Made by a program: the position numbers and the translations under genes. A DNA stretch of 64,000 nucleotides from an uncultured delta proteobacterium (lineage in GTDB: Bacteria > Myxococcota > Myxococcia > Myxococcales > Anaeromyxobacteraceae). This document shows, in pieces, positions 40,124-63,155 of this stretch; position 1 is the stretch's first letter; each line of letters opens with the position of its first letter. A model generated the notes under the pieces. It made no database searches. It was not told the origin of the DNA and was given only the letters and a program-made list of their open reading frames with translations. The stretch lies in assembly GCA_963814585.1 (NCBI GenBank), contig CAWFDF010000014.1, forward strand, positions 128,001-192,000, given 5' to 3'.

Positions 40124-41638
40124 CTACCCCGCCTTCCGGCTCGAGCCCGGGCCACCCGCCACCGGCCCGGTGATGGGGCCAAGCTCGGCCAGCATGGCGC
40201 GGACCGACTCGGGCATCTCGGCGCCGCTGGCCATGTGCTTCATCTCGTGGCCGAGGTAGCTCTTCTCGATGAGCAGCTTGAGCACGCTCACCATGAAGGC
40301 CCGCTTCTCCGGCGTGAGCTTGTCGAGGTTCTTGAACTTGTCGTGGAAGAAGTGGCCGGTGGCGCGGTGGAGCTCCCGCTGGACCTCCTCCAGGGTCATG
40401 TTGTCCGGCTTCATGACCGGCTCGACCAGGTTGTAGCGCCGGTAGTCCCGGGTGGCGACGTGCGCGTCGAGGTCGCCGGCGATCTCGGCGTAGGGCCAGG
40501 GCGTCAGGGCCAGGAAGAAGGCCATGTCCGGCGCGTACCACTTGGCCAGCTCGACCGTCTTGCGGATGGACGCGGCGGTCTCGTCGGGCGTGCCGAGCAC
40601 GAAGGAGGTCTCGCTGACCATGCCGTGCTGGTTGATGAGGTCGATGGCCCTCTTCGACTCGTTGACCTTGATGTCCTTGTGGTACAGGTCGAGCGTCGAC
40701 TGGCTGGTCGACTCGACGCCGACGTAGATGTGGCTGATGCCCGCCTTGACGTACTTGGGCAGCATCCGCTCGTCGCGGATGACGTCGTCGACGCGGGTCT
40801 CCATGAGGATCTCGACGCCGACCTGCCGCTCGATCAACAGGTCGAGGATGGCCTCCCAGCGCGCCCGGTCGGAGGTGGGGGTCTCGTCGGAGAGCATGGT
40901 GACCGCGACGCCGTAGCTGTCACGAAGGTGCTCCAGCTCGGCGACGAACCTGAGCGGCTGGCGCCCGCGCCAGCTCCGCCCCCAGAACTTCTGCTGCGAG
41001 CAGAAGCTGCAGCGCGAGGAGCAGCCGCGCGCCGAGTTGGCGATGGCGAGGCGGCCGTGCGGCCTGGGCCGGTAGTGGTAGAGCGGCCAGTCGAGGAGGT
41101 CCCAGGCCGGCTGGACGGCGTCGATGTCGGCGAGGAGCGCGCGCGGGCCGTTGCTGGCCGGATGGCCATCCCGGCGCCAGGCCAGCCCGTCGATCCGGTC
41201 GAACCCCTCGCCGGCCTCGAGCGCCTTGACCAGCTCGATGACGGTCAGCTCCCCCTCGCCGCGGACCACGAAGTCGACGCTGGGGTCGTCGCGGAGGATC
41301 TGCTCCCAGCAGAAGGTGGCGTGGACGTTGCCGATGACGGTCTTGACCGCCGGGTTCCAGGCCTTGGCGGTGGCGCAGATGACGCGACTGTCGGGCTCGG
41401 TGGCCGTGATGGCGGTGGTGCCGACCAGGTCCGGCTTGAAGGCCTCGATCTTCTTCCGGATGTCATCGTGCGACGCGAACAGGCTCATCGCGTCGTAGAT
41501 CTCGACCTCGGCGCCGGCCAGCCGGGCCGCCCCGGCGACGTAGGCGAGGTTGAGCGGCATCCAGACGCCGGCCGACTCGACCACCCCGGAGTGATAGGGC
41601 GCGGTGACGAGCAGGACTCGGAGGCGGCGAGCGGTCAT
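40124..41638 (-). CDS. Cobalamin-binding radical SAM enzyme (BchE-like, class B)
   Basis: PLNLAY, GNVHAT, GEGE B12-binding domain; ARGCSSRCSFC (CxxxCxxC); GVES. Confidence 0.9.
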   Translation of the reverse strand: MTARRLRVLLVTAPYHSGVVESAGVWMPLNLAYVAGAARLAGAEVEIYDAMSLFASHDDIRKKIEAFKPDLVGTTAITATEPDSRVICATAKAWNPAVKTVIGNVHATFCWEQILRDDPSVDFVVRGEGELTVIELVKALEAGEGFDRIDGLAWRRDGHPASNGPRALLADIDAVQPAWDLLDWPLYHYRPRPHGRLAIANSARGCSSRCSFCSQQKFWGRSWRGRQPLRFVAELEHLRDSYGVAVTMLSDETPTSDRARWEAILDLLIERQVGVEILMETRVDDVIRDERMLPKYVKAGISHIYVGVESTSQSTLDLYHKDIKVNESKRAIDLINQHGMVSETSFVLGTPDETAASIRKTVELAKWYAPDMAFFLALTPWPYAEIAGDLDAHVATRDYRRYNLVEPVMKPDNMTLEEVQRELHRATGHFFHDKFKNLDKLTPEKRAFMVSVLKLLIEKSYLGHEMKHMASGAEMPESVRAMLAELGPITGPVAGGPGSSRKAG

Positions 41639-41811
41639 GCGGTTTCTCCCGAGCAAGCGACCCCGGCTGGCGGGGTGCTCTCACTGTACCATGGCCGCCG
41701 GTCCACGACGGCTGGTTCCAGGAAAGATCCCTGTCCTTTCAGCTACATCGGACAAACGATTGTTTGGAGTCCGGGGGGCGTCAAACTGTCGCATGCTAGA
41801 CTCCGCCTCCG

Positions 41812-42162
41812 ATGCGCGACCGGCTCACCATCCTCAACGCCTTCGTCCACGACGTCGCCACCGGCACCTGGATCGGGACGCTCCTCCTCCTGACCATGCT
41901 CCACCGGGAGGCCCAGCGGCCGGCCTGGTTCCTGGCCGGCCACCTGGTGCCCGGCCTGGAGCGGAAGTTCCTGGTGGTCACCTGGGTGAGCCTGGCGGTG
42001 ATCGTGGCCACCGGCGTCATCCGCATGGTGACCTGGAAGGTCTTCGGCTGGACCGGGGACATGGAGAAGAGCCGCATCCAGCTGCTCAAGGTGAAGCACG
42101 CCCTGCTCGGCGTGGTCTTCGCCGCCGGCACCCTGTACCAGTGGCTGCTGGTCTACTCGTGA
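41812..42162 (+). CDS. Small three-TM membrane protein (CopD/DUF4149-like pattern)
   Basis: FVHDVATGTWIG, ATG.IRM, LLKVKH; strong GC3 coding bias. Confidence 0.7.
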   Translation: MRDRLTILNAFVHDVATGTWIGTLLLLTMLHREAQRPAWFLAGHLVPGLERKFLVVTWVSLAVIVATGVIRMVTWKVFGWTGDMEKSRIQLLKVKHALLGVVFAAGTLYQWLLVYS

Positions 42163-42275: not shown

Positions 42276-45200
42276 TCAGTAGGCCCCGCCCAGGCGAGTA
42301 GGTCTCGGTGGTGTCGCCGAGCGTGCAGCCCCCAGGTGCTGCCGCAGGGACTGGCCGCTCTGCAGCGTACGCGGGAGTAGCGTCGAGCCGCCGATCTGCG
42401 GCGGGCTGGTGGTTCGACATGCTCCGTGGTGTTGCGGATGAAGGCGTAGGGCCTGGCGTTGACCTGTGCCGGGGAACCGGTCGAGGTTCCAGCCCACCGT
42501 CCCGGTCTTGCGGTCACCGGTGAAGCCGGCAGCACGTTGACCCCGTGGACGTCCTGCGCGCGAACCGGCCGCACCACCGCGGTCGTGTAGTCGCTGCCGT
42601 GACACCTGTTGCAGCCATACTGCAGGTAGACCTGCATGGTGTTGTTGGAGTCGAAGTCGAATGCCGAACCCGGGCCGTGTGACACGTTGGAGTTGCACGT
42701 GTTGGTCGCGCCCCCGCAGGTGTCGTAGCCTGGCGTGGCAGACGGCGCAGAGCGTCGCACCGGTGGTCGCCGAGGGCGCCGTGCCGCTGGCCGTGGCGTT
42801 GCCCCGGAGCGTCACCGCTCCGCCGTGGGCCGTGACCGTGGTGGTGATGGTGCCGCGTGACTCCCGTGCCGCGCATGGCAGTCCCAGCAGGAGAGCAGCA
42901 GACCCCAGCCGGTGGTGGTGCCGGCCGTCTTGGTCGACGCTCCAGGGCGCCACCATGCGGGTGCCTGATGCGTAGGAGTTGTTCTGCTTCCCGGTCACCG
43001 GGTGGTACGAGGAGTTGGTCGGCGCGAAGGAGGCGTTGACGTCGGCGACGCCGCCCGCGACGCCGTTGGCGGTCACGCCCGCGCCCACGTAGGCCGCGCC
43101 CGCGATGGTGGTGCCGAAGGGCTTCTCCGCCGTCCCGGTCGTCGGCACCCGCGCCGAGGCGCTCAGCGCGCCGTTGCCGTCGTGGCACTTGAGGCACTGG
43201 TTGATCATGATGGCCTGGACCGCCGGCTCCAGCGTGGCGCTGGCCAGGTTGCGGCTGAACGCCGTGAAGGTCGCGTCGGTGGCGGTGCTGGCGTAGGCCC
43301 CGGCGCCGGTGCCGCCGAAGGTGACCCCCTTGATGTTCAGACCGGTGTCCGGATCCCTCAGGTTGATGAGCCCGTCCCTGTGGACGCCCGACGGGTTGCC
43401 GGTGGCCGCGTCGCCTTCCATGTGGCAGACCACGCAGTCCCACTTGGTGACGACGGTGTTGGCGGGCACGCCGCCACTGGAGGAGCGTTTGTGCGACCAG
43501 GCGTTCCTGAACTCGGGGACGATGGGGCGCCTCGTCCCCTGGACCTCGTCGTGGCAGGTCACGCAGTCGCCGCCGCCGTCGAGCTGGCCGTTGATGTGGC
43601 TCAGCTGGTTCACCGCCGCGATGGTGCTCGCCGAGGTCGGCGAGCTGGCGTAGCCCGGGTGGCAGGAGCCGCAGAGCGGATCGCTCGGGTGGGCCGCCGT
43701 GACGGGTGGCAGGCCGTGGCAGGAGCCACACTGGGCCGCGCTGGCCGCGCCGGTCCAGGCCGGGGCGTTGACCTGGCCAGCGGCCGTGTCCGTGCTCTTC
43801 GGATCGTGGCAGTAGGTGCTGGAGCAGGTGGGCTGCGCGTAGGAGGCCGCCTTGGTCTCGAAGGCGTTGTCGCCGGCCAGGGCGCCGAAGGTCAGCGTGG
43901 CGCGGGCCACGCCGGTCCCCACGCCGGTGGCGTGGGCGACGTCGGTGTTGCTCGTCGGGACCAGGTGGCACTCGGCGCAGGCGATGGCCGTGGAGCGCCA
44001 GCGCGGCGTGTTGCCGGCGCCGTTCCCCACCAGGTGGGCCTCGTGGGCGCCGACGCCGACGGCCGTGGTGGCCACCGCGCCGACGGTGTCGTACGAGTTG
44101 GTGCCGCTGCCCGAGGCCCCCGGCGCCGACTTGAGCGGCGCCGCCGCCAGGACGTTGGCTGCCCCCAGCTCGCCGTGGCAGCCGGTGCAGCCCGAGGTCG
44201 ACCTGGTGACGATGGCGTCGACGTGGGTCGCCGCCGTCACCGTGGTGCTGGTGGAGCCGGCGTGGCAGGTGCTGCAGGTGGTGTTCTGCGGGTGCGGGTA
44301 GGTCGGCTGCGAGGCGGTGGTCCCCTGCCCGTGGCAGGCGGTGCAGGCCAGCTTGGCGGTGGTCCCGGTGCCCCAGCTCACCGTGTTGGCGAGCTTGCCG
44401 CCCGGGAAGTTGCCGTGGCAGTAGGTGTTCGAGCAGGTCTTGCTGGCCGCGCTGTAGGCCGTCGGCGTGATCCCGCCCGCCGTGGCGATGTTGCCCCACA
44501 GCACCGGGTTGGCCGGCGTGGCGTGCGGCGCGGTGGTCCAGACCTGGCCGAGGTGGCAGTTGTCGCAGCGCAGCGCATTCGAGAGCGGCCCCGGCGCCGC
44601 GACGTCGCCCTGGTTCACGTGGGCCTGGTGGGCCCCGACCAGGTTGCCGGTGGCCACGCCGCTGCCGTCGAGCGGCGGCGCCGCCTTGACCAGGTTCTGC
44701 CCGTTGACGTCGTTCCAGACCGCGGTGGCGACCGGGGTCCGGCCCACCGCTCCGTGGCACGAGGTGCAGGTCATGTTGGCCACGTCGAGCGACCCGTTGA
44801 TGTGGGCCAGGGCGTTGACCGCGGCGATGGTGCTGGCCGTGGACGGCGCGTCGGCGTAGCCGGGGTGGCAGCCGCTGCAGGCCGTGCTGGACGTGTGGCC
44901 GCTGGCCAACGGAGGCAGGCCGTGGCAGGAACCGCACTGGGCCGTGGCGGCCGCCCCGATCCAGGACGGCGCCTGGTTCAGTCCGGCCACCGTGTCGGCG
45001 CGCGGCGCGTGGCAGTAGGTGCTGGCGCAGCCGGGCTGCGTGTAGGTCGGCGTCCGGGCCCCGAAGGCGTTGTCGCCGGCCAGGGCGCCGAAGGTCAGCG
45101 TGGCGCGGGCCACGCCGGTCCCCACGCCGGTGGCGTGGGCGACGTCGGTGTTGCTCGTCGGAACCACGTGGCACTCGGCGCAGGCGATGGCCGTGGAGCG

Positions 45201-48200
45201 CCAGCGCGGCGTGTTGCCGGCGCCGTTCCCCACCAGGTGGGCCTCGTGGGCGCCGACGCCGACGGCCGTGGTGGCCACCGCGCCGACGGTGTCGTACGAG
45301 TTGGTGCCGCTGCCCGAGGCCCCCGGCGCCGACTTGAGCGGCGCCGCCGCCAGGACGTTGGCCGCCCCCAGCTCGCCGTGGCAGCCGGTGCAGCCCGAGG
45401 TCGACCTGGTGACGATGGCGTCGACGTGGGTCGCCGCCGTCACCGTGGTGCTGGTGGAGCCGGCGTGGCAGGTGCTGCAGGTGGTGTTCTGCGGGTGCGG
45501 GTAGGTCGGCTGCGAGGCGGTGGTCCCCTGCCCGTGGCAGGCGGTGCAGGCCAGCTTGGCCGTCGTCCCGGTGCCCCAGCTCACCGTGTTGGCGAGCTTG
45601 CCGCCCGGGAAGTTGCCGTGGCAGTAGGTGTTCGAGCAGGTCTTGCTGGCCGCGCTGTAGGCCGTCGGCGTGATCCCGCCCGCCGTGGCGATGTTGCCCC
45701 ACAGCACCGGGTTGGCCGGCGTGGCGTGCGGCGCGGTGGTCCAGACCTGGCCCAGGTGGCAGTTGTCGCAGCGCAGCGCATTCGAGAGCGGCCCCGGCGC
45801 CGCGGCGTCGCCCTGGTTCACGTGGGCCTGGTGGGCCCCGACCAGGTTGCCGCCGGCGGTGCCGCTGGCGTCGACCGGCGGCGCCGCCCTGACCAGGTTC
45901 TGCCCGTTGACGTCGTTCCAGACCGCGGTGGCGACCGGGGTCCGGGCCACGTCGCCGTGGCAGGTCGTGCAGGTCATCGGGACGAGGTCGAGCTGGCCGT
46001 TGATGTGGTTGGTCGCGCTGACCGTGGTGCCGGTGTAGCCGGAGTGGCACCGGCCGCAGTCGGTGCTCGACTGGGGGTGGGTCCCACCGGGCAGCGTCGC
46101 CGTCGCCCCGGCGCCGGCCCCGTGGCAGGAGTTGCAGGTGAGCGCGGCGTCCTGCGCCCAGCCCACGGTGAAGGCGGGGCCCTTGCCGTTGGTGAAGTTG
46201 CCGTGGCAGTAGGTCGCGGTGCAGCCGACGCCCCCGGCCCGGCTGTAGGTCGGCGTCACCGCCGGCGACCAGATGGTGTTCACCGCGCCGCGCGCCAGCG
46301 CGCTCCACGTCAGGGTGGCCCGCGCCCCGCCCGTCCCGACGCCCACGGCGTGGGCCGTGTTGCCGTCGGCCGGCACCAGGTGGCAGTCGGCGCAGGCGAT
46401 GGCCGCCGACCGGTAGGTCGTCTGCTGCAGGTGGGCCTGGTGCGCGCCGTACTCGTTGGTCGTCGCCGCCACCGGCCCGCCCGTCGTCGACAGGCCCGTC
46501 CCGCCGGCGCCAGGCGCCGAGTTGAGCGGCGTCGCGGCCAGCACGCCCGGCGACGGCGTCGAGAGCACGCCGTGGCAGCCGCTGCAGCCGAAGGTCCCCC
46601 TGTTCACCGCACCGTCGACGTGGGTGCTCGCCGTCACCGAGCTCGCGGAGTAGCCGGCGTGGCAGGTGACGCAGGTGGCGTTCTGCGGGTGCGGGTAGCC
46701 CGGCTGCGGCGCCGCCACCGACTGGCCGTGGCAGGCGTTGCAGGCCAGCTTGGTGGCGGCCGTCGGTCCGGTCCCCCAGGCCACCACGTTCGACGGGATG
46801 CCGCCGGCGAACTGGCCGTGGCAGTACGTCGAGCTGCAGCTCAGGGTGGCCGGCGCGTAGGCCGCCCCGGCGGCGACGGCGATGTCACCGAAGGTCACCG
46901 TGGTCACGCCGTCGGAGTGGGTCGTCGAGGACGGCACCACGTGGCAGGCGACGCAGCGCTGGGCGGCGGAGAGCGGGGCGCCCGTCGCCCCCTGGTTGAC
47001 GTGGGCGAGGTGGGCGCCGACCTGGTTGCCGGAGGCCAGGCCGCTCAGGTCGATCGGCGGGGCGGACTGCTGCAGCGGCTGGTTGAAGACGTCGAGGTCG
47101 GTGGCGGTGGCCACCGAGGCGCGGGCGAGGTTGCCGTGGCACCCCGTGCAGGTGTCGGCGGCGGCGTCGAGCCGGCCGTTGAGGTGGAGCGCGGCGCTGG
47201 CGGTGGTGGTGGTGTAGCCGGCGTGGCAGACCGAGCAGTCCGTGTTGCCCTGCGGGTGCGTCCCGCCGGGCAGCGAGGCGATGGCGACGGTGGCGGCCGC
47301 GGCGCCGTGGCAGGAGTTGCAGGTCAGGGGGCCGACCGTGGTCCAGCCCACGGTGGCGTTCTTGCCGTTGCGGAAGTTGCCGTGGCAGTAGGTCGAGGCG
47401 CAGCTGCCGCCGGCGGTGCCGCCGGCGAACGAGGCCGACCCCGTGTAGGACGGGTTGACTGGCGCCCCGGACCAGGCGTTGACCGCCCCGGTGGCGGTGG
47501 TGCTCCAGGCCAGGGTGGCCCGGGCGCCGCCGGTGCCGGCCCCGCCGGTGGCGTGGGCGGTGTCGGTGTTGCCGGACGGGAGCGCGTGGCACTCCCCGCA
47601 GGCGATGGCGACGCGGCCGATGACCCCGGCGCCGAGGTGGGCCCTGTGGGCTCCCACGCCCGCCGAGGTGGCGGCCGTCTGGCCAACCGTGTCCATGGTG
47701 CCCAGGGCGTTCGTGCCGGTGGCGCCAGGCGCCGCGGCCGCCAGGTTGGCGGGCGGCGTCACCGTCACGCCCGTGGCCGAGAGCTGGCCGTGGCAGGAGG
47801 TGCAGCCCGACGTGGTCTTGTTCACCGTCCCGTCGACGTGCGTGGCCGCCGTCACCGCCGAGGAGGTGTAGCCGGCGTGGCAGGTGGCGCAGGCCAGGTT
47901 CTGCGGGTGCGGGTGCGGTGGCTGGGCCGCCGTGGCCTGGCCGTGGCAGGCGTTGCAGGCCAGCTTTCCGGCCGCGTTCCAGCCCACCGTGTTTCCCTGC
48001 AGGCCCCCCGTGAACTGGCCGTGGCAGTAGGTGGCGCTGCAGCCCCGGGCGACCGGGTCGTAGGTCGGCGAGGCGCCGTTGGTGGCCAGGCCGCCGAAGG
48101 TGACGAGGACGCTGCCGTTGGAGTGCGCCCCGGCGAGCGGGATCAGGTGGCAGGCGTCGCAGCGGACCGCGCTGGAGAGCGCCGGCGGCGTGGCCCCCTG

Positions 48201-51200
48201 GTTGACGTGGGCGAGGTGGGCGCCCACCTGGTTGGCGGTGGTGACGCCGGCCGGCGGCGAGGCCTGGACCAGCGGGGCCCCGTTGGCGTCGAGCTCGGCC
48301 GCGGTGAGCACCGGCGCGCGGGCCGGGTCGCCGTGGCAGGAGGAGCAGCTCAGGGTCGACACCTGCACCAGGCCGTCGAGGTGGGTGGCCTTGTCGACCG
48401 CGGTGCCGCCGTAGCCGGCGCCGTGGCAGCTGCCGCAGGCGGTGCTGCCCTGCGGGTGGCTGCCGCCCGGGAGGGTGGCGGTGGGGCCGGTGCCGGCGCC
48501 GTGGCAGGAGTTGCAGGTCAGCCCGCCGGTGCTGGTCCAGGCCACGGTGGCCTTGCCGCCGTTCTTGAACTGCCCGTGGCAGTAGGTGGAGGCGCAGCTG
48601 CCGGCGGTGGTCCCGTAGGCCGCCGAGGTCGAGCCCGCGTAGCTCGGCGCGACCGCCTCGTTGTTCCAGGAGGCCGGCGTCCCCAGCGCGAGGTTGCCCC
48701 AGGCCAGGGTGGCGCGGGCGCCGCCGGTGCCGGCGCCGGTGGCGTGGGCCCGGTCGGCGTTGGTGGGCGGCAGGGCGTGGCACTCGGTGCAGGCCAGCGC
48801 GGCCGAGCGGTAGGTGGTCCCGGAGGCGTGGGCGGCGTGGGCACCGACACCGGGGGCCGAGACCAGGCCCTGGCCGGTGGTGTCGAGCTGGTTGCCGCCG
48901 GACGGGGCGGAGGCCGCCAGGCCGTTGCCGAGCGTGACGCCGGCGACGGCGCGGTCGCCGTGGCAGGACGTGCACCCGCTCACCACCAGGGTGACGAGGG
49001 TGTCGACGTGCGTGGTCCGGGCCGTGCCGCTGATCCCGGCCACGGCGTAGCCGGCGCCGTGGCAGCTGGCGCAGACCGGGTTCTGCGGGTGGTTGGCGCC
49101 GGCCGGCGAGGCCGCCAGCGGAGGAGGCGCGCCGTGGCAGGTGCCGCAGGCGACCTGGCCGGCGCCGGCCGTCCAGCTGGGCGTCTTGTTGGTGCCGCCG
49201 GCCGCGGTGAGCGAGGCGCCGTGGCAGTAGTTGGTGCAGGTCGGGGCCGCCTCCCAGGCGGCGACCGGGAGCGCCCCGGCGAGCGGCGCCGGGGTCACGC
49301 CGCCGGCCGTGGCCGGCGCGGTCCAGGCCATGTCGACCTGGTCGTTGCCGTGGCGCAGGCTGGCCGGGCCGGTGTGGCAGGTGCCGCAGCCGTAGCCGGC
49401 CGCCACCAGCGTGCCGCCAGCGGTGTGCGGCTGGTGGGCGCCGACCTTGACGCCCGAGGAGGCGCCGGTGGTGGCGTACGGCGGCGCCGGGTTGCCCGAC
49501 GGGCCGCCGTGGCAGCTGGTGCAGTTGGTGCCGGCCGGGTCGATGAGCCCGTTGACGTGGGTGAGGGCGTTGACGCCGCTGGCGGAGTAGCCCGGGTGGC
49601 ACTGGCCGCAGGCCCCGTTGTTCGGGTGCCAGGTGCCGGGCCGGGCGGCGTGGCAGGTGCCGCAGGCCGCCTCGGGGGCGCCGGCCACCCAGTTCGGGTT
49701 GACCTTGGCGCCGCCGCCGGCCAGCGTGATGCCGTGGCAGTAGTTGGTGCAGGTCGGGTTCGCCTCCCAGCCGGCGATCAGGTTCCCCTCCGCCGGCGTC
49801 GGGACGGCGCTGCGGGCCCTGGCGAGCGAGCCCCAGCCGATGGCCACGCTGCCGTCGGCGTGCTTCTCGTCGCCGGGCAGGACCGCGCCGTGGCACTCGG
49901 TGCACTGGATCTGGATGGCCAGCGCGCCGGCGGGGTTGAGGCTGCTGGACGGCTGGATGTGGGCGAGGTGGGCGCCCACCGCCGGCTGGTTGGCGCCGGT
50001 CTCGCCCTGGGTCCCCTCGGGCGGCGCGGCCCTGTTGGCGGCCACCGGTGGGTTGCCGACCGCCGCGAAGGCGGCGTCGGCGGCCCGGTTGCCGGCGCCG
50101 TGACAGAAGGTGCAGTCGGTCAGCCAGGTCGGCCGGCCGGCCGCCGCGTGGCACGCCGTGCAGGACGGCGCCGCGCCCTGCCCGGCGAAGCTCGAGCCGT
50201 GGCAGGTGGCGCAGGCGGCCAGTCCCTGCAGCGCCTGGGGCCCGTGGGTGGCCGGGTTGGAGTAGCCGACCGGGTGGTAGTCGAATTCCGGGAGACCGTT
50301 CACGTGCAGGCCGTTGCCGGTGTTGATGGTGCCGTCGGCGTTGACGGTGCCGGGATGGCACTGGGCGCACTGGGTGGCGGCGGTGATGGCGAGGCCCGAC
50401 TTGTCGGTGACCGGGTGCGGCGCGACCGGGCCGGAGATGAAGTGGCAGCTGCCGCAGGCCCCGGCGCCCGGGGTGTTCCAGGCCGGCGTCTTGTTGCTCC
50501 CGCCGGCGAGCGAGCCGCCGTGGCAGTAGGTCGAGGCGCAGGACCCGGCGGCGTAGGACGGGCTGAGGCCGTCGAGGTCGACGAGGTCGTTGGTCCCGGT
50601 GGCCCACTGGATGACGGGCTGGCCGTGCGGACCGCCGTTGGTCGGGACCCGGTGGCACTCGCTGCACTCGAACGGCCTGGAGATGCGCGAGCCGAGCGAG
50701 GCCACGGTGGAGACGTGGCGCAGGTGGGCGCCGACCTGGGGGCCGGTGGTCTGCCCCCTGGAGTCCCTGGGCGGGGCCCAGGCGGCCTGGGAGCCGACCG
50801 GCTCGCCGCGGGTGGTGTCACCGTGGCAGGCGGTGCAGCCGCTGGCCTGGACCTGGCCGTCGATGTGGGCGCCGGTGGTGGTGAGCTGGCCGGCCGGCGT
50901 GACGGTGTCGGGGTGGCAGGTGGCGCAGTCCGTCGGCGTGAGGCCCGCGGCGTGGCTCGGAGGGGCGCCCGTGGTGTTGGGGCTCGACGGGTTGGCGACC
51001 GCGTCGCCGTGGCAGGAGCCGCAGTTCATCGGCGGGTCGCCCCAGGCCGGCGTCGTGGCGGAGCCGCCGCTGGCGCCGAGCGAGGCGCCGTGGCAGTAGA
51101 CGGTGCAGCTGCCGCCCTTCCCCGGAGCCGGGGCCGGCGAGAAGCTGGCGCTGAAGGTGCCTCCGTGGGTGGCGCGCGCCCCCCAGGTGATCTCGGCGCG

Positions 51201-51512
51201 GCGGTCGCCGTCGGGCGTGCCGTCCGGCTTCACCATGTGGCCGGCGTCGCCGATCAGCCCGGGGACCTTGTGGCAGTCGTCGCAGGCGACCAGCTTGCCG
51301 AGGTGCGCCGTGTGGGCGCCGATCGCGCCGCCGATCGCGGAGCCGGCGAGGTCGTTGGGCGGTGCCCCGGTCTGGTCGCCGGCCGCTCCGCCGTGGCAAC
51401 CGAGGCAGCTGCCCGGCCCGGATGGGTTGGGTGGCGTTCGCCTCGCCTTGTCGCAGCTTCCGAGGGAGAGCGCGGCGAAGAGGGCGGCGACTGCGAAGGC
51501 ATGACGGCGCAT
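42276..51512 (-). CDS. Giant lipoprotein multiheme c-type cytochrome (about 3,070 aa, about 73 heme motifs; CxxxxCH/CxxCH-domain family); last ~700 bp carry multiple +1 frameshifts
   Basis: Signal peptide with lipobox LGSC; manual count about 60 CxxCH (two in shifted frames) and 13 Cx3CH/Cx4CH; ends GGAY*. Confidence 0.93.
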   Translation of the reverse strand: MRRHAFAVAALFAALSLGSCDKARRTPPNPSGPGSCLGCHGGAAGDQTGAPPNDLAGSAIGGAIGAHTAHLGKLVACDDCHKVPGLIGDAGHMVKPDGTPDGDRRAEITWGARATHGGTFSASFSPAPAPGKGGSCTVYCHGASLGASGGSATTPAWGDPPMNCGSCHGDAVANPSSPNTTGAPPSHAAGLTPTDCATCHPDTVTPAGQLTTTGAHIDGQVQASGCTACHGDTTRGEPVGSQAAWAPPRDSRGQTTGPQVGAHLRHVSTVASLGSRISRPFECSECHRVPTNGGPHGQPVIQWATGTNDLVDLDGLSPSYAAGSCASTYCHGGSLAGGSNKTPAWNTPGAGACGSCHFISGPVAPHPVTDKSGLAITAATQCAQCHPGTVNADGTINTGNGLHVNGLPEFDYHPVGYSNPATHGPQALQGLAACATCHGSSFAGQGAAPSCTACHAAAGRPTWLTDCTFCHGAGNRAADAAFAAVGNPPVAANRAAPPEGTQGETGANQPAVGAHLAHIQPSSSLNPAGALAIQIQCTECHGAVLPGDEKHADGSVAIGWGSLARARSAVPTPAEGNLIAGWEANPTCTNYCHGITLAGGGAKVNPNWVAGAPEAACGTCHAARPGTWHPNNGACGQCHPGYSASGVNALTHVNGLIDPAGTNCTSCHGGPSGNPAPPYATTGASSGVKVGAHQPHTAGGTLVAAGYGCGTCHTGPASLRHGNDQVDMAWTAPATAGGVTPAPLAGALPVAAWEAAPTCTNYCHGASLTAAGGTNKTPSWTAGAGQVACGTCHGAPPPLAASPAGANHPQNPVCASCHGAGYAVAGISGTARTTHVDTLVTLVVSGCTSCHGDRAVAGVTLGNGLAASAPSGGNQLDTTGQGLVSAPGVGAHAAHASGTTYRSAALACTECHALPPTNADRAHATGAGTGGARATLAWGNLALGTPASWNNEAVAPSYAGSTSAAYGTTAGSCASTYCHGQFKNGGKATVAWTSTGGLTCNSCHGAGTGPTATLPGGSHPQGSTACGSCHGAGYGGTAVDKATHLDGLVQVSTLSCSSCHGDPARAPVLTAAELDANGAPLVQASPPAGVTTANQVGAHLAHVNQGATPPALSSAVRCDACHLIPLAGAHSNGSVLVTFGGLATNGASPTYDPVARGCSATYCHGQFTGGLQGNTVGWNAAGKLACNACHGQATAAQPPHPHPQNLACATCHAGYTSSAVTAATHVDGTVNKTTSGCTSCHGQLSATGVTVTPPANLAAAAPGATGTNALGTMDTVGQTAATSAGVGAHRAHLGAGVIGRVAIACGECHALPSGNTDTAHATGGAGTGGARATLAWSTTATGAVNAWSGAPVNPSYTGSASFAGGTAGGSCASTYCHGNFRNGKNATVGWTTVGPLTCNSCHGAAAATVAIASLPGGTHPQGNTDCSVCHAGYTTTTASAALHLNGRLDAAADTCTGCHGNLARASVATATDLDVFNQPLQQSAPPIDLSGLASGNQVGAHLAHVNQGATGAPLSAAQRCVACHVVPSSTTHSDGVTTVTFGDIAVAAGAAYAPATLSCSSTYCHGQFAGGIPSNVVAWGTGPTAATKLACNACHGQSVAAPQPGYPHPQNATCVTCHAGYSASSVTASTHVDGAVNRGTFGCSGCHGVLSTPSPGVLAATPLNSAPGAGGTGLSTTGGPVAATTNEYGAHQAHLQQTTYRSAAIACADCHLVPADGNTAHAVGVGTGGARATLTWSALARGAVNTIWSPAVTPTYSRAGGVGCTATYCHGNFTNGKGPAFTVGWAQDAALTCNSCHGAGAGATATLPGGTHPQSSTDCGRCHSGYTGTTVSATNHINGQLDLVPMTCTTCHGDVARTPVATAVWNDVNGQNLVRAAPPVDASGTAGGNLVGAHQAHVNQGDAAAPGPLSNALRCDNCHLGQVWTTAPHATPANPVLWGNIATAGGITPTAYSAASKTCSNTYCHGNFPGGKLANTVSWGTGTTAKLACTACHGQGTTASQPTYPHPQNTTCSTCHAGSTSTTVTAATHVDAIVTRSTSGCTGCHGELGAANVLAAAPLKSAPGASGSGTNSYDTVGAVATTAVGVGAHEAHLVGNGAGNTPRWRSTAIACAECHVVPTSNTDVAHATGVGTGVARATLTFGALAGDNAFGARTPTYTQPGCASTYCHAPRADTVAGLNQAPSWIGAAATAQCGSCHGLPPLASGHTSSTACSGCHPGYADAPSTASTIAAVNALAHINGSLDVANMTCTSCHGAVGRTPVATAVWNDVNGQNLVKAAPPLDGSGVATGNLVGAHQAHVNQGDVAAPGPLSNALRCDNCHLGQVWTTAPHATPANPVLWGNIATAGGITPTAYSAASKTCSNTYCHGNFPGGKLANTVSWGTGTTAKLACTACHGQGTTASQPTYPHPQNTTCSTCHAGSTSTTVTAATHVDAIVTRSTSGCTGCHGELGAANVLAAAPLKSAPGASGSGTNSYDTVGAVATTAVGVGAHEAHLVGNGAGNTPRWRSTAIACAECHLVPTSNTDVAHATGVGTGVARATLTFGALAGDNAFETKAASYAQPTCSSTYCHDPKSTDTAAGQVNAPAWTGAASAAQCGSCHGLPPVTAAHPSDPLCGSCHPGYASSPTSASTIAAVNQLSHINGQLDGGGDCVTCHDEVQGTRRPIVPEFRNAWSHKRSSSGGVPANTVVTKWDCVVCHMEGDAATGNPSGVHRDGLINLRDPDTGLNIKGVTFGGTGAGAYASTATDATFTAFSRNLASATLEPAVQAIMINQCLKCHDGNGALSASARVPTTGTAEKPFGTTIAGAAYVGAGVTANGVAGGVADVNASFAPTNSSYHPVTGKQNNSYASGTRMVAPWSVDQDGRHHHRLGSAALLLGLPCAARESRGTITTTVTAHGGAVTLRGNATASGTAPSATTGATLCAVCHARLRHLRGRDQHVQLQRVTRPGFGIRLRLQQHHAGLPAVWLQQVSRQRLHDRGGAAGSRAGRPRGQRAAGFTGDRKTGTVGWNLDRFPGTGQRQALRLHPQHHGACRTTSPPQIGGSTLLPRTLQSGQSLRQHLGAARSATPPRPTRLGGAY
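43861..45978. repeat. Intragenic direct repeat, 1,203-bp period (near-identical cores ~43861-44775 and ~45064-45978)
   Basis: AAGGCGTTGTCGCCGG at 43861 and 45064; GTGCAGGTCAT at 44764 and 45967; few substitutions between copies. Confidence 0.95.
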
Positions 51513-51606
51513 TGAGGCGACCTCGTACCGTCCTCCGGTGACAGGAGGATGCGGCGACCGGGATTGCGGAGACGCCCCATCGTGCCGGATTCGCACCAGC
51601 AGCGAA

Positions 51607-51721: not shown

Positions 51722-53220
51722 TCACAGCTTGTTCGGGCCGGGTGTCTCCGACTGCAACCCGGCCGGGTGGTCCTCCAGCTTCTGCTTTCGCGCCTGCTCC
51801 ACGAACCACTCCATGGGGCGCTCGGTCTGGTCCTTGAACGTCTGGAGGGACTCGTCGCGCTGGCGCGCGGCGTCCTCGTCACCCTGCGAGACCAGGATCT
51901 CGTCCACCACCTGCGGGCAGGAGGCCACCGAGCCCGGGCGGGCCTCGATCTCCTCGCGGGTGCTCGGCTCGGCCGGTGGCGCCCTGGCGATCAGCATCTT
52001 CAGGTCGATGGAGAAGTTCACGTAGGTCTCCAGCATCCGGAAGATGGCCGAGTCGCCCATGCCGCCCACCGGCCGCTCGTCGGGCAGCGGCGAGACCTTG
52101 CCGCCCTCGAGCTTGGCCCGGCCCACGATCTCGCAGCCTCGACCCGCCGTCGGTGGTGTACCCGAGGTTGTCGGTGATGACCGCCAGCACGGTGGGGACG
52201 TTGGCGAGGTCCCAGTGGGCCATCAGCCCGACCTTCCCGTCGGGCAGTGGCTCGAGCGTGTCGACGTCCATGGCCAGCACGCGCGACCAGGGCGGCACCG
52301 GGCGGATCCGGTTGCGCGGCGGCAGGCCCTGGACGCGGCGCCGGAGGGCGTCGTCGAAGAGGTTGGTGGCGGTCTCGGCCTCGCCGAGCACGTTGACGCA
52401 GTGTGAGGAGGGGACCCCGAGCGTCTCCTCCACCATGGCGTAGTAGTCGTCGCGGGTCACCGTCCCGAAGCGCCCACGGTAGCCGCCGCCGTCGCAGATG
52501 CGGCTCCCGGTAGGCAGCTTGAAGGTCCATCTTCTTCCGCTTGCAGGCCTGGAAGAAGTAGACGTAGGCGGAGGTGGCGCCGATGATCGCCACCGGCACG
52601 CCACTCGCCTCCGCCTCGCGCAGCGCCTTGAGCAGGCCGTGGATGTCGATGCCGGTCCGGTTCAGCAGGAACTGGCTGTCGGGGGTGCCGAAGTGGGTCC
52701 GCGTCTGCTCCATGCCGATGGCCATGCCCATGGAAGGCGCCATCTCCGGGCTGGGGGCCAGGATGAGGATGCGGCAGCGCCGCCCCTCCTCGAAGTCGGG
52801 GAAGAGGTAGGCGCCGGTCATCCGCTTGTTGGCGCCGAAGACCAGCCGCTTGCCGTCCTCGTCGCGGAAGATGCGGCCCCGCTGGGTCAGGCTGGTGGTC
52901 CCGCCGGTGAGGCAGCCCATCACCGCCCGCTCCAGCGGGAAGGAGGCCACCAGGTGGGTCTTGAACATGTCGTTGTAGACCAGCGGGATGTCCTGCCAGC
53001 GAGACACGTCGCCGGGGCGCACCTTCTTGGCCTCACAGAACTCGCGGAAGATCGGGTTCACCTCGTGGTGAAGGGCGAACATCCGCAGGCAGGAGCCGTT
53101 GAAGTCGGGCACCTCGGCGTCCACGCCGGCCTCGATGTACCCGAGGACCTCGTCGGTCAGCCTCCGGCGCTCGAGGGCGGGGCCGGACGGCTCGGAGGTG
53201 GCGGCGGGCGGGGTCGGCAT
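51722..53220 (-). CDS. LuxE-like acyl-protein synthetase (adenylating enzyme), split by two +1 frameshifts (~52527, ~52144)
   Basis: NPIFREFC, WQDIP...FK, TGGTT, DGGGYRG, PPWSRV...DVDTLEP, DLAN, VITDNLG, EIVGR joined across three ORF-track frames. Confidence 0.8.
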
Positions 53221-53285
53221 GCTCGGTTCCTTTGCACGAGGAAGGCCAGCAGGAGCGGCGCGCTCGCGCACCGCGGCACCGGCGG

Positions 53286-54653
53286 CTACGGGGCGATCGA
53301 ACCGGTGAGGGCGGGACCGGGCCGCGCCTGCTTCTCGCGCACGGCCTGCTTCGATTCCTTCCACTTCTGGTACGCGATCTTCATGCCGGTGCGGACCGGG
53401 AGCTGGTTCATCAGCGAGAGGACGTGGGCGTGGGGGAAGCCGGACGCCGGGACCTCGAACATGTGCTTCCAGATCCGCCCCAGCTTGAGCAGCTCCAGCG
53501 AGGTCTCGTAGAACCGCTCCTCGCGGACGTCCGGCGTCATGGCCGGATCCGGGTGCTCGAAGAGCGCGTAGGCGCCCGTGTAGTACTCCCAGCCCAGGTC
53601 CCTGTAGAGGTAGGGCTCGTACTCCTGGCGCAGGTCGGTGCCCGGGTACGGGACCACCAGCGAGGGGTGCATGCTCACGCCCAGCCGGTCGGCCAGGTCG
53701 ACGGCGCGCCGGTAGTCGTCGAGCGAGTCGGCGCGCGAGCCGAGCATGAAGAAGAGGGAGACGTCGATGCCGTGGTCCTTCAGGGTCCGCACCGCCCGCT
53801 CCCGGTCGACGCCGACCTTGCGGTCGGCGCGGTACGCCTCGAGCCCTCCATCGGTGATCGACTCCCACCCCACCCAGACCGTCAGCATGCCGCTCGCCCG
53901 GGCCGCCCTGAGCATGCGGGAGCCCTCCGGGGCGAGCACCGGCGCCAGGCTGCCGAACCCCATCCACTTCTTCCTGCTGCCCCGGAGCGCCGTGAAGAGC
54001 TCGGTGGCCCGATCCGTCTTCCCGAGCCACCAGATGTTCTCGTCGCCGTTGATGTACATCTTGCCCGGGATGGCATCGACGTCGCGCACCACGTCGTCGA
54101 TGGGGCGCATGCGGATCCGCGAGCCGAAGACCTTCCTCACCGTGCAGAAGCTGCACGGGTACGGGCAGCCGCGGGCGGTGCTGACGATGCGGAAGTCGTG
54201 GCCGTGCTTGAGGAGGCCGTAGGCCGGCGTCGGCAGGCCGTCGAGCGGCAGCTGCTCGCCCCGGTAGAAGGGCTGGAGCCGGCCGGCGCGGAAGTCCGCC
54301 AGGACGGTCGGCCAGACCGACTCGGCCTCGCCGGTCACCACCGCATCGGCGTGTTGCCTGGCCTCCTCGGGCAGGGCCGTGGCGTGCATGCCGCCCACCA
54401 CCACCTTGATGCCCCGGGCGCGCAGCCCGTCGGCGATCCGGTAGCCGGGGACGGAGGTCGGCGTCAGCAGGCTGATGGCGGCCAGGTCGCACTCCAGCGT
54501 GTCGAAGACGTCCGGCGTGGCGCTGGCGCTGTAGAGCTCGATCTCGATGCTGGGATCGGCCTGGCGGGTGAGTGCCGCCAGGTACTCGAGGATGGGCGGC
54601 GCGACCGGGGTCCAGCCGAAGGGGAGCGGTGGCTTGATGATGCAGAGCTTCAC
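53286..54653 (-). CDS. Cobalamin-binding radical SAM enzyme
   Basis: LEYLAALT, VVVGGMHATALPEEA, GEAE; ARGCPYPCSFC; GWES; PYPGT. Confidence 0.9.
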   Translation of the reverse strand: MKLCIIKPPLPFGWTPVAPPILEYLAALTRQADPSIEIELYSASATPDVFDTLECDLAAISLLTPTSVPGYRIADGLRARGIKVVVGGMHATALPEEARQHADAVVTGEAESVWPTVLADFRAGRLQPFYRGEQLPLDGLPTPAYGLLKHGHDFRIVSTARGCPYPCSFCTVRKVFGSRIRMRPIDDVVRDVDAIPGKMYINGDENIWWLGKTDRATELFTALRGSRKKWMGFGSLAPVLAPEGSRMLRAARASGMLTVWVGWESITDGGLEAYRADRKVGVDRERAVRTLKDHGIDVSLFFMLGSRADSLDDYRRAVDLADRLGVSMHPSLVVPYPGTDLRQEYEPYLYRDLGWEYYTGAYALFEHPDPAMTPDVREERFYETSLELLKLGRIWKHMFEVPASGFPHAHVLSLMNQLPVRTGMKIAYQKWKESKQAVREKQARPGPALTGSIAP

Positions 54654-54760
54654 GTCAGTCCTCGTCCCCCGGAGGCGGCGGATCGTACCCGATGCCGGAG
54701 GCGGAGTGGAGAGGCCTGCCGGTAAACGAAGTTATTCGAAGCCCTCGGAGGGCTGCGAAA

Positions 54761-56083
54761 TCACAGCGGCTCCACCTTCCAGGCGAGCCGGAGACCATCC
54801 TTCACGCCATAGGCGACCGACCTGCCGTCGGCCGTGAACCGGACCGGGAAGACCTGCTGGTAGGGCGGATGCTGCCGGACCGTCCTGCCGCCGAGGTCGG
54901 CCACCACCACGAAGCGCCTCCCGTCCTGGCGCGCCCGGTAGACGAGGAACCTGCCGTCCGGGCTGAACGCCGGCGAGACCACCCGGTCGAGCGGCGGCCC
55001 TTCCTTGCCGTTCACCACCACGAACCAGCGCTCGCCTCGGCGCGCCACGTAGGCATGTGAGCGGCCGTCGCTGGAGTAGACCAGCGCCTCGAGCTCGTCC
55101 ACGGCCGGTCCGGCAGCCTCGCCCGCGGCGAAGGGCTGGAGCAGGCGAACCAATCCGCCCTCCAGGATCGCGACGCCGAGGGCCTTCTTCCCTGGACGGA
55201 TCACCGGGGGTCCGAACACCTCCCCGGGCGGCAGCGGCTCCTCCAGGTCGTCGAGCACCACCAGCCGCCGGCCGGCTCGCTCCGCCAGGTAGGCCACCGA
55301 CGCGCCGTCCGGACCGAGGGCCGGGCTGGACGCCGCATCGTAGCCCGGCCCCCGGTGGACCCGGCCTGGCGCGGCGAAGGCCAGCTTCAGCACGGTGGCC
55401 TTCCCTTCCCGTTCCCCGACGGCCGCGAGCCACCTCCCATCCGCGCTGCTCACCAGCTCGGAGGCGCGTGCCTCGACCACCACCTGCTCCTGGAAGTCGA
55501 GGTCGCTCACCAGCAGCCGTCCGACGCCCTGCTGGTCGGGGTCGGCGATGAAGGCGAGCCGCGAGGAGTCGCCGCTGAACCGGAGCTCCGGAGGGGGCGA
55601 CCGGGCGCCCGGGCCCAGCGTGCCGTCGATGACCGGGTGCCACCGCTCCCCGGCCCGGGCCAGGTAGGCGACGTGCGCGCCGTCGGGGCTGAAGGCGGGG
55701 GCCTGGATCTCGGCGAACCCCGGCCCCTCCGCGCCATCGACGACCAGCCGCCAGGTCCCGTCGACGAGCGCGCCGTGGGCGCAGCGCCGCCCGTCGGGGC
55801 TGAGGACGATCGTCCCCACGGCGGCGAAGGCCTTGCCGGGGCGCCCGTCGTGGACGACCTGGAAGCGGCCGCCCTCCTGCTCGACCCAGGCGACGCCACC
55901 GCCGCGCTCGGCGAAGAGGTACTCCCGCTCCGCGTCCGCCGGCAGGGTGGCGAGGACGGCCGGCCGGTCGGCGACGGCGGTTGGCGGAGGGCCGCGCACC
56001 GGCTCCGGCCTTCCGCAGCGGCAGCCCGCGAGCGACAGCCAGACGCTGCACGCGGCCGCCAGCGTTCCGAGGCGACGATCCAT
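54761..56083 (-). CDS. Lipoprotein with PD40/TolB-like beta-propeller repeats
   Basis: Lipobox LAGC; repeated (F/L)SPDG.(H/R)(V/L)AY.A...G.RW..VVDG units. Confidence 0.75.
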   Translation of the reverse strand: MDRRLGTLAAACSVWLSLAGCRCGRPEPVRGPPPTAVADRPAVLATLPADAEREYLFAERGGGVAWVEQEGGRFQVVHDGRPGKAFAAVGTIVLSPDGRRCAHGALVDGTWRLVVDGAEGPGFAEIQAPAFSPDGAHVAYLARAGERWHPVIDGTLGPGARSPPPELRFSGDSSRLAFIADPDQQGVGRLLVSDLDFQEQVVVEARASELVSSADGRWLAAVGEREGKATVLKLAFAAPGRVHRGPGYDAASSPALGPDGASVAYLAERAGRRLVVLDDLEEPLPPGEVFGPPVIRPGKKALGVAILEGGLVRLLQPFAAGEAAGPAVDELEALVYSSDGRSHAYVARRGERWFVVVNGKEGPPLDRVVSPAFSPDGRFLVYRARQDGRRFVVVADLGGRTVRQHPPYQQVFPVRFTADGRSVAYGVKDGLRLAWKVEPL

Positions 56084-56096
56084 GGCGGGTCTGCCT

Positions 56097-56921
56097 TCAG
56101 TGCTCGACGCGGAAGCCCTTGTGGAAGGTCTCGACCGAGAAGGGAATGCCCCAGTAGCTCACGATCATGACCACCACCGCGGCCAGCGCGTACCAGGCCA
56201 GCCGCCGCCCGCGCCAGCCCATGGTGATGCGCAGGTGGAGGTAGATGCCGTAGACCAGCCAGGAGACCAGGGACCAGACCTCCACCGGGTCCCAGTTCCA
56301 GTAGCTGCCCTTGGCCTGGTCGGCCCAGAGCGCCCCGGTCACGATCATCAGCCCGTACATGATGAAGCCGGCGGCGACGAACCGGTAGCCGAGCCGGTCG
56401 ATGTCGGCCGGGGACGGCAGCCGGTCGTAGATGCCGCCCGATCGCCCCTCCTTGAGCAGGAACATCAACGCCATCCCCGCCGCCATGAGCACGGCGGCGA
56501 AGCCGATGGTGGCGCCGACGATGTGCGCCCAGAGCCAGCCGCTCTGCAGCGCCGGGGCCACCTGCGACGCGGCCGCCTCGCGCAGCGTGCCGGCCCAGCC
56601 GATGAGGACGAAGACCACCGGGAGCACGAAGGCGCCGAGCGGCCGCACCCTGGGCGTCGAGGCCTGCACCACCAGGAAGAGCGCCACCGCCATGAAGGTC
56701 CCGAGCGCCAGCGACTCGGAGATGGAGAAGAACGGGCTGACCCCGCCGGCCACCCAGCGGACGGCGATGCTGGAGAGGTGGGCGACGAAGCCGAGCGCGG
56801 CCGCGCCCAGACCGGCGGCGAGCAGCTTGCCGTTCTCGGCAATGAACCCGAAGACGTAGGCGAAGGCGCTCACCCCGTAGAGCCCGATGGCACACCAGAA
56901 CAGCAGCTGCTCGACGTTCAC
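56097..56921 (-). CDS. ccsA: System II cytochrome c synthase, CcsA/ResC family
   Basis: PALQSGWLWAH, TGALWADQAKGSYWNWDPVE, YLHLR, C-terminal His; multiple TMs. Confidence 0.92.
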   Translation of the reverse strand: MNVEQLLFWCAIGLYGVSAFAYVFGFIAENGKLLAAGLGAAALGFVAHLSSIAVRWVAGGVSPFFSISESLALGTFMAVALFLVVQASTPRVRPLGAFVLPVVFVLIGWAGTLREAAASQVAPALQSGWLWAHIVGATIGFAAVLMAAGMALMFLLKEGRSGGIYDRLPSPADIDRLGYRFVAAGFIMYGLMIVTGALWADQAKGSYWNWDPVEVWSLVSWLVYGIYLHLRITMGWRGRRLAWYALAAVVVMIVSYWGIPFSVETFHKGFRVEH

Positions 56922-58126
56922 GGGATCTCCTTCGGCACCGGGGTGCCTGGCTCTGGGCGGCTCGGTGCGCGCCTGCCGCGCTTCTCGTCCTGCCGGATGC
57001 GGCCGATGAAGGTCATGGTCATGCCGGCCAGGCCCGCCCAGAGGCTGGTGAGGATGACCGTGAGGCCGGGGTCGTGGCGGACCGTCATGCCGACCCAGTA
57101 TCTCACCTCCCGGGCCTCCAGCCGGTGGTCCCCGGCCTCGAACGTGCCGCCGACGGTCACCTTGCCGGTGGCGGCCGGCTCCGTGGCGCCTGGCACCGCC
57201 TGGTGGTCCTTCCCCGTGGCGCCCCCCGGCCCGGCGCCCGCCTCGCCCAACGGCCAGGTGAAGAACTCCACCTGCCCCGCCCGATCCTGCTCCCGGTCCG
57301 GCACGTACCCCACCTGGAGCAGCAACGCCGGCCTGTCGGGGGGAGGCGGGAACGGGAAGGAGCCCGGCTCCCTGGCTGAACCGGTGGTGTAGAGGAAGGC
57401 CTCCTTGCCCATGGGAATGCTCTGCAGCGGGACCATGGCCGCGTAGAGCTCCCGACCCTGCCGGTCGTGGAGGACGACGCCGAGCGAGTAGCCCTCCTTC
57501 GAGACCAGGTAGCGCACGCCGCGGTGGTCCAGGTTCTGCGTCATGTAGATGGTCGCGGTCGCCCTTCCCTCGCCGTCGCCGACCGCGATCTCGTAGGCGG
57601 CGCGCTTGTCCTGCCCGTCCACCTTGTAGTCCCGGTGCATCTTCAGGAGCGTGGTCTCGCCTCGGAGCCGCGTGAAGTCGAAGAGGCGCCCCACCTCCAC
57701 CGTGTCGTAGCTGGACGCCTCGCCGTTGGGCAGCGTCTCGCCCTCGGTCAGCCGCAGCACCCCCTTGAAGTGGAAGAGGCTGTTGAAGACCACGCCGCCC
57801 AGCAGGGCCATGAAGCTCACGTGGAACAGGATCATGCCCACGGAGATGAGCGTGAGCTTCCGGCCCCAGGTGCGGGCCAGGAAGGTCACTCCCGAGCTCA
57901 GCGCCAGCAGGACCAGCAGCCCGTTGAACCAGAGCGTGTCGAAGATCAGCGCCCAGGCCCGCTCGCCGGTGAAGACGGTCACGCCCACCAGGCAGCAGGC
58001 GAGGACGGCGACCAGCAGGGCGATGGCGAGGCGCGGCGAGGAGATCACCGCGAAGGCCCGCCGGCCCAGGCCGGGCCCGGGGCGGCGCGGAGGCACGGTC
58101 GCGGCTGGGCCTTCGACGGGCGTCAT
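56918..58126 (-). CDS. resB: System II cytochrome c biogenesis protein, ResB/CcsB-like
   Basis: SSPRLAIALL, IFDTLWF, LFHVS...LLGG, LTEGE, C-terminal HDPG.TVI; overlaps the ccsA start. Confidence 0.85.
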   Translation of the reverse strand: MTPVEGPAATVPPRRPGPGLGRRAFAVISSPRLAIALLVAVLACCLVGVTVFTGERAWALIFDTLWFNGLLVLLALSSGVTFLARTWGRKLTLISVGMILFHVSFMALLGGVVFNSLFHFKGVLRLTEGETLPNGEASSYDTVEVGRLFDFTRLRGETTLLKMHRDYKVDGQDKRAAYEIAVGDGEGRATATIYMTQNLDHRGVRYLVSKEGYSLGVVLHDRQGRELYAAMVPLQSIPMGKEAFLYTTGSAREPGSFPFPPPPDRPALLLQVGYVPDREQDRAGQVEFFTWPLGEAGAGPGGATGKDHQAVPGATEPAATGKVTVGGTFEAGDHRLEAREVRYWVGMTVRHDPGLTVILTSLWAGLAGMTMTFIGRIRQDEKRGRRAPSRPEPGTPVPKEIP

Positions 58127-58367
58127 GGATGGGCGCACCTTACCAAAGCTCCACGCCGCACCGTGACCGGAGTCAAAGCGCCCCTCGCCTGGCCCGAGCC
58201 CGTCGCGAGGCACACGATGCCGTCGGCGAGCCGGGTCGCACGACGACGGAGCAGCGGAAGCGGGCTGGTGGCCCGCTGAGCAGCGGACGGAGGAGTCCGC
58301 CCGGCGCAGCCAGGCAGCGTGCGCCGCAGTAGGGATCGGGTCAGGCGAGTGGCGCTATCAGCCCGGC

Positions 58368-63138: not shown

Positions 63139-63155
63139 GGTGTGCTCCCGGCGCG

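Follow-up and report, generated by a model that had tools for sequence, protein, structure and literature searches.

Whether bacteria manufacture, export and use single polypeptides that carry dozens of hemes is described as an open question in PMC7096707 and PMC11492766. The window analyzed here, a stretch of 64,000 nucleotides, raises this question through one gene and its parts:

42276..51512, minus strand: gene of the giant CxxxxCH/CxxCH-domain cytochrome, with an annotated product of 3078 aa
51453..51512, minus strand: lipoprotein signal peptide, lipobox LGSC (Cys20), mature start C-D-K-A-R
50238..51419, minus strand: pentaheme modules M1 (50850-51419) and M2 (50238-50849), position-orthologous in same-genus relatives
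50127..50237, minus strand: two-heme insert (CATCH, CTACH)
48987..50126, minus strand: pentaheme modules M3 and M4
43578..48986, minus strand: modules M5-M13, of two alternating types, with M10-M11 duplicated as M12-M13
42276..43577, minus strand: six-heme C-terminal cap, about 410 aa, ending GGAY, with about six frameshifts below about 42935

The frame is open for 3078 codons on the minus strand, from an ATG at 51512 to a stop at 42276, with a GC3 of 0.92-1.00 down to about 42950; below this point the GC3 signal leaves the annotated frame. It encodes 71 heme motifs (58 CxxCH, 3 Cx3CH and 10 Cx4CH), and residue shuffles of the same protein gave a mean of 1.1 and a maximum of 5 motifs (n = 1000). 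Reading through the frameshifts in the cap brings the total to 73, the figure estimated in the initial annotation, which had proposed just such a motif count after frameshift correction. The lipobox Cys20 is the sole cysteine outside a motif within residues 1-2860; because every other cysteine up to that point belongs to a motif, heme binding at the Cx3-4CH sites is indirectly supported. A 2837-aa open reading frame on the opposite strand (43002-51515) contains no motifs and was rejected as a shadow frame. Promoter and terminator scans found nothing, and no RNA holder is listed for the sequence. The giant gene is a real feature and its heme count is right.

Profile searches with the CxxxxCH/CxxCH models, another suggestion of the initial annotation, placed the protein far above the cut-offs for TIGR01904 (342.3 bits against a cut-off of 27, over 15 stretches) and PF09698 (79.2 against 21.7, over 13 stretches). 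By these scores the giant is a TIGR01904/PF09698 cytochrome and belongs to a known, annotated and experimentally uncharacterized family. The ESM Atlas, queried with the modules, returned PF09698 clusters, commonest in Myxococcota (0.97), and module matches were present in 28 of the 41 genomes searched, including 23/24 of the same family. In relatives the motif count is 87 in G001, 94 in G021, 77 in G006 and no fewer than 75 in G013. The largest among the relatives examined is a 3902-codon open reading frame of G021 (L020:4366-16074), with the 94 motifs and 16 strict pentaheme modules. Similarly high heme counts appear in published reports: 113 and 87 motifs in two proteins (PMC11492766), 112 in a Paludibaculum MAG (PMC11495043), 86 in Agromonas oligotrophica (PMC7096707) and 40 in Anaeromyxobacter dehalogenans (PMC2330069). 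The likeness is one of heme count, and the proteins with 113, 112 and 86 motifs exceed the 73 of the giant. A size record was therefore rejected, and the rarity implied by the initial annotation was not supported, with 75-94 motifs in relatives and 86-113 in papers. Other large cytochromes of G000, encoded by open reading frames on contigs C1, C6, C16 and C14:232122-235967, contain 42, 42, 30 and 29 CxxCH motifs and no Cx3-4CH. Loci L019 and L029-L033 show a further arrangement: their giants have a long non-heme N-terminal region, and ahead of each giant come a repeat protein of PKD/TSP3 (often NHL) type and a cytochrome with five hemes.

What distinguishes the giant is its regularity. As the initial annotation had proposed, it contains 13 modules (M1-M13) of 181-218 aa with five heme motifs each. 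Ten motif Cys/His columns are invariant in 13/13 modules, although the first Cys of the Cx3-4CH site does not fall into a single column; equally invariant are GAHxxH, three further His, the Tyr of YCH and one Trp. The spare invariant His number five per module and match its five hemes in all 13. The Cx3-4CH site is followed by the Trp and a CxxCH in every module, and this Trp is kept in 140/140 strict modules from the window and its relatives. Module 2 is indeed followed by two additional CxxCH motifs (CATCH and CTACH), and a further pair of spare His (YHP and THG) lies just ahead of them. Inspected proteins from Geobacter and Nitrospiria contain at most two strict pentaheme units (0-2), and in most of them the period is three hemes, in contrast to the 13 units of the giant; P0061, for example, has 41 motifs and one strict unit. 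On this basis a long array of pentaheme units appears to be a variant found in Myxococcota. The giant also differs in having a lipoprotein anchor in place of an N-terminal non-heme domain.

The junctions between modules are short and nearly fixed. Across 20 large open reading frames, 103 of the 121 inter-module gaps measure 9-15 residues (median 11, SD 0.8, statistics that leave out the 18 longer gaps, several of which contain extra hemes), and no segment varies less than the junction, with its pattern H-[VLI]-[DN]-G. Stretches rich in Ala, Gly and Thr do exist, as reported earlier, but they lie in the long loops inside the modules (51% A/G/T) and not at the short junctions (34%). Because these stretches are loops within modules, the supposed linkers are not flexible spacers, and the short, near-fixed junctions favor a continuous bis-His heme chain. 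Modules M1-M4 cluster by position with those of three same-genus orthologues (four genomes in all). From M5 to M13 two types alternate, and the last pairs were duplicated independently here and in G001. At the DNA level M10 and M12 are 96.0% identical, M11 and M13 are 86.8% identical, and the longest exact repeat is 197 nt. Since the copies differ to this extent, a duplication of M10-M13 introduced by assembly was rejected and the repeat is biological. The pattern favors a history, read from the sequence, in which duplication of repeats lengthened the heme chain.

The preferred reading, given a probability of roughly 55%, is that the giant is a lipid-anchored, single-chain bis-His heme conductor with a specialized tip. 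The polypeptide would be exported by Sec and receive its hemes from the adjoining ResB/CcsA pair and/or other CcsA copies. The 13 tandem modules and the cap would fold into one continuous bis-His heme chain, with the five spare His of each module completing its five hemes and the H-[VLI]-[DN]-G junction holding the hemes of neighboring modules within transfer distance. Displayed at the cell surface, possibly via type II secretion, the chain would start at the membrane anchor and conduct respiratory electrons to a cap that is probably extracellular. With about 7 kDa of peptide for each heme, the cap would be the functional tip that contacts an acceptor, and gain or loss of modules would tune the reach. 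Peptide mass in the repeat region is 3.8 kDa per heme; according to PMC7096707, every solved cytochrome below 5 kDa per heme works in electron transfer, and values above 7 occur among catalysts. The extended conductor of the initial annotation fits this mass, the 1:1 ratio of motifs to spare His and the short junctions, and its terminal cap domain is supported. Scaled from 86 hemes over 630 Å (PMC7096707) or from a 27-heme protein of 350 Å (PMC11492766, which gives 170 Å for the periplasm), 73 hemes would extend over about 54 nm or 95 nm, and both estimates exceed a periplasm of 17-20 nm. Whether such proteins are expressed with all their hemes is left open in PMC7096707.

Structure prediction of tandem modules, also suggested earlier, gave modest AF2 scores for M5-M6 (pLDDT 71.9, pTM 0.64) and little secondary structure; we infer the extended shape from the features above. 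The module sequence reached a best E of 0.21 against solved structures, and fold searches with it returned nothing in Foldseek at E≤10 or in VIA-align at Z≥2. More generally, neither the modules nor the cap had a significant match among solved structures, including OmcS, OmcE and OmcZ (phmmer, Foldseek and VIA-align). Likeness can escape such searches, and these blank results do not show a new fold for either part. The OmcS, OmcE and OmcZ nanowires and GSU1996 share closely spaced heme chains with the proposed conductor, and GSU1996 is likewise a single chain of concatenated modules; in the giant, however, length is set by the gene, whereas in OmcS, OmcE and OmcZ it is set by polymerization. 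GSU2884 (OmcA), OmcG, OmcH and the 27-heme "cluster 2" wire are presented in PMC11492766 as predicted long, modular single-chain wires, extracellular by prediction and with no solved structure. The "cluster 2" comparison is by description, 27 hemes against 73. No experimental study of the module, cap or cassette was found in the literature covered, which leaves out most subscription papers; the model atlas of PMC11492766 may contain the module or cap, and PMC13013709, PMC7399161 and PMC12977616 supplied background only.

The anchor bears on where such a chain would operate. The N-terminus is basic-hydrophobic and ends in LGSC, so the lipoprotein signal named in the initial annotation can be read from the sequence, with Cys20 as the lipobox cysteine. 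Membrane tethering is likely from this signal; which membrane is involved is the less settled part of that claim, since the mature protein has Asp at +2, the inner-membrane retention signal of Escherichia coli according to PMC3222651. The same source gives Lys+2 or Ala+7 as the signals of Myxococcus xanthus and notes that sorting rules differ among bacteria. The giant has neither Lys+2 nor Ala+7 and shares Asp+2 with five other lipoprotein giants. Porin families were absent from the 34 window open reading frames scanned. The MtrB/PioB porin family PF11854 had no match in the 91.7% complete genome, in a search that did not extend to Geobacter-type porins; GspD scored above its cut-off in the same genome. 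Some lipoproteins reach the surface through type II secretion, and from these sequence features surface display of the giant by that route is plausible.

The conserved Asp+2 and the lack of an MtrB-type porin match could fit a protein that stays inside. Anchored in the inner membrane, either folded or stretched out along it, the chain would then serve in the periplasm as an electron bus or as a store (capacitor) that buffers redox changes. PMC2330069 suggested that the 40-heme protein of A. dehalogenans acts as such a capacitor. Upstream of the giant, at 62404-63998 on the minus strand, a cytochrome b561 gene lies beside a nine-motif cytochrome that runs off the window, and a gene pair of this kind would suit the store. 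This reading is a serious rival but the less likely one. A store needs neither fixed junctions nor a strictly terminal conserved cap (116/120 homologues end GGx[YF]), the predicted length of the chain is several times the width of the periplasm, and the variation in lipoprotein sorting reported in PMC3222651 weakens the argument from Asp+2. The b561 gene and its nine-motif neighbor presumably resemble a CbcBA-type quinol oxidase; an M56 peptidase and a two-component pair follow that locus.

The tip of the preferred heme conductor is a 410-aa domain with six CxxCH motifs, six conserved spare His, a conserved Cys pair and invariant polar residues (D48, E55, R75, D134, D235 and R366). The six-motif end domain of the initial annotation is thus real, although the annotated frame holds 4/6 of its motifs; CWDCH and CNRCH sit in another frame. 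The cap is always C-terminal, and the GGx[YF] end seen in the 116/120 longer homologues recurs in 83/90 further representatives. At E≤0.001 it matches 753 clusters formed at 50% identity, and the peptide mass per heme of most intact caps is 7.0-7.4 kDa. Fourteen of the 120 cap proteins lack Cx3-4CH, some of which may be fragments. Named cap relatives are mostly labelled Anaeromyxobacter, Anaeromyxobacteraceae or Myxococcales, which makes Anaeromyxobacteraceae the probable family of the host; the domain also ends CxxxxCH/CxxCH-named proteins in Geomonas, Geobacter and Nitrospirae, and its cultured carriers include Anaeromyxobacter oryzisoli SG63 and Geobacter argillaceus. Among the cap-bearing lipoproteins examined, heme counts range from 33 to 73. 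The lower value belongs to an intact paralogue (G000:C8:540103-544569, L035) with the same C-D-K-A-R start and the same cap, which served as a stand-in for fold prediction; AF2 modeled its cap as a confident compact domain (pLDDT 81.3, pTM 0.86). The cap has no Pfam family or solved fold and no NCBIfam model at cut-off. Its best sequence match among solved structures was a zinc-finger fragment (E 0.007), Foldseek gave zero matches at E≤0.001, and the ESM Atlas returned weak paired-CXXCH matches alone (0.91). VIA-align returned one row, an Mtr-complex chain (6r2q_A; 168 aligned, Z 3.6, rmsd 5.6), and kinship was not accepted on that row.

A cassette of five genes (51722-58213, minus strand) lies directly upstream of the giant:

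51722..53241, minus strand: LuxE-like acyl-protein synthetase, split over three frames, with an intact 84-91% identical orthologue in G009
53286..54653, minus strand: B12-binding radical SAM enzyme; its orthologues go with the cap
54761..56083, minus strand: PD40 beta-propeller protein, probably a lipoprotein
56097..56921, minus strand: CcsA/ResC heme lyase subunit with the variant Trp-rich motif KGSYWNWD
56918..58213, minus strand: ResB-like heme lyase subunit

The KGSYWNWD motif replaces the usual WGxYWxWD consensus of CcsA, and further PF01578 genes exist in addition to the adjoining ResB/CcsA pair. Geobacter CxxxxCH/CxxCH cytochromes have an adjoining ResB/ResC pair as well, and PMC2700814 proposes that such pairs serve nearby cytochromes. 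In genomes of Myxococcota, the Geobacter family and Nitrospiria, the cassette tracks the six-heme cap. The nine relatives (9/41) with the cap are also the nine with the LuxE-like gene, with a radical SAM orthologue in 8/9 of these and the CcsA subtype (≥63%) in 7/9, plus one genome without a cap match. They coincide again in 8/16 genomes of the Geobacter argillaceus family, one of them at just a 45% match. In a set of 66 family genomes, a LuxE-like match at 68% or more was present in 10, and each of these also had a cap match (a fragment only in G003); four had divergent or weak cap matches and no LuxE-like gene, and one had a 53% LuxE-like match and no cap. Three of five other cap-bearing genomes had the LuxE-like gene at 78-79%, and it was absent from the other two. 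Across phyla the LuxE-like protein is 75-80% identical.

G001 (98% complete) separates the cap from the stalk. Its giant has 15 Cx3-4CH sites and a different, ten-heme cap, and no match to the variant CcsA, radical SAM or LuxE-like protein was found there at the cut-offs used. Because this genome has the same stalk, another cap and none of the three genes, it is the cap, rather than the Cx4CH motif, that the cassette goes with. Service of the Cx4CH sites as such by the variant CcsA is weakened by G001 and by the 14/120 cap proteins without Cx3-4CH. Two giants lie close together in G001 (L017:4963-16140 and L018:8164-18783, with 87 and 34 motifs), a CcsA with the canonical motif lies between them, and the ten-heme cap ends in Trp; from these giants, caps appear swappable on one stalk type. 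Block inheritance could explain part of the cap/cassette pattern. Other genes near the giant behave differently: downstream of it lie a BchE-like B12-radical SAM gene (40124-41656, minus strand; 387 bits against a cut-off of 481), which does not track the cap, and a gene for a 116-aa CopD-like membrane protein (41812-42162, plus strand), both also found in cap loci L063 and L068. The co-occurrence of the cap with the LuxE-like gene, usually together with the radical SAM enzyme and the variant CcsA, is new here. A tentative proposal, with the odds clearly against it, is that an as yet undescribed pathway for tailoring cytochromes acts on the six-heme cap. LuxE-like and B12-radical SAM enzymes would modify a heme or the GGxY end in the cytoplasm, and the CcsA with the altered motif would install the product, on a wire lengthened by pentaheme modules.

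The same genes admit a distinctly unlikely variant in which the cap itself catalyzes a redox reaction by means of a chemically modified heme or residue, fed with electrons through the 67-heme chain; the modification would again be made in the cytoplasm by the LuxE-like and radical SAM proteins and installed by the variant CcsA. The cap's 7.0-7.4 kDa per heme lies in the range that PMC7096707 calls catalytic; the predicted fold is compact and confident, with invariant polar residues, and the shared distribution of cap and LuxE-like gene (9/41 and 8/16 genomes), together with the conservation of the latter across phyla, would be in keeping with this variant. Against this, six conserved spare His stand opposite six motifs, so that no open heme site is evident. 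Moreover, the co-occurrence may reflect block inheritance among kin that are not independent, and two of the five further cap-bearing genomes and the four with divergent or weak cap matches gave no LuxE-like match.

The frameshifts in the giant's own cap bear on whether it has a tip at all. Frameshift-aware alignment to each of two intact caps, that of the paralogue and one relative's, gave six frame changes between about 42935 and 42290. Those near 42930, 42860, 42730 and 42424 were common to both alignments, and the alignment to the paralogue rejoins the annotated GGAY stop. In short-read contigs that are nearly identical to the window, one base is missing at 42728 (X2 and X3) and at 42420-27 (X1, X2 and X3); these contigs come from a single study, and the breaks near 42935, 42860 and 42290 lie outside their coverage. 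Assembly errors are the most likely cause. That the cap and LuxE-like gene are truly frameshifted, leaving a capless or non-functional chain, is very improbable: the cap, with about six shifts, and the LuxE-like gene, with two, do stand against 11/12 intact orthologues tested in the genome, the lone frameshifted one being that adjoining LuxE-like gene, but the extra bases are absent at two breaks in the short-read contigs, nearly all shifts are single-base gains with no in-frame stops and a clean 8.5 kb upstream, other TIGR01904 genes of the assembly (C3, C15 and C17) likewise lie in overlapping frames, and the cassette would still be required for the paralogue on C8, whose cap is intact.

The giant is unusually regular, though no record, and the value of the find is its regular module together with the link between cap and tailoring enzymes. 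A self-contained five-heme unit of 190 residues with a fixed junction would make a wire of programmable length. The cap is widespread and lacks a Pfam family or solved fold, and its link to the cassette enzymes names a target for their suspected modification step. If the tailoring proposal is true, these bacteria would have a wire encoded by a gene and ending in a redox tip of new chemistry.
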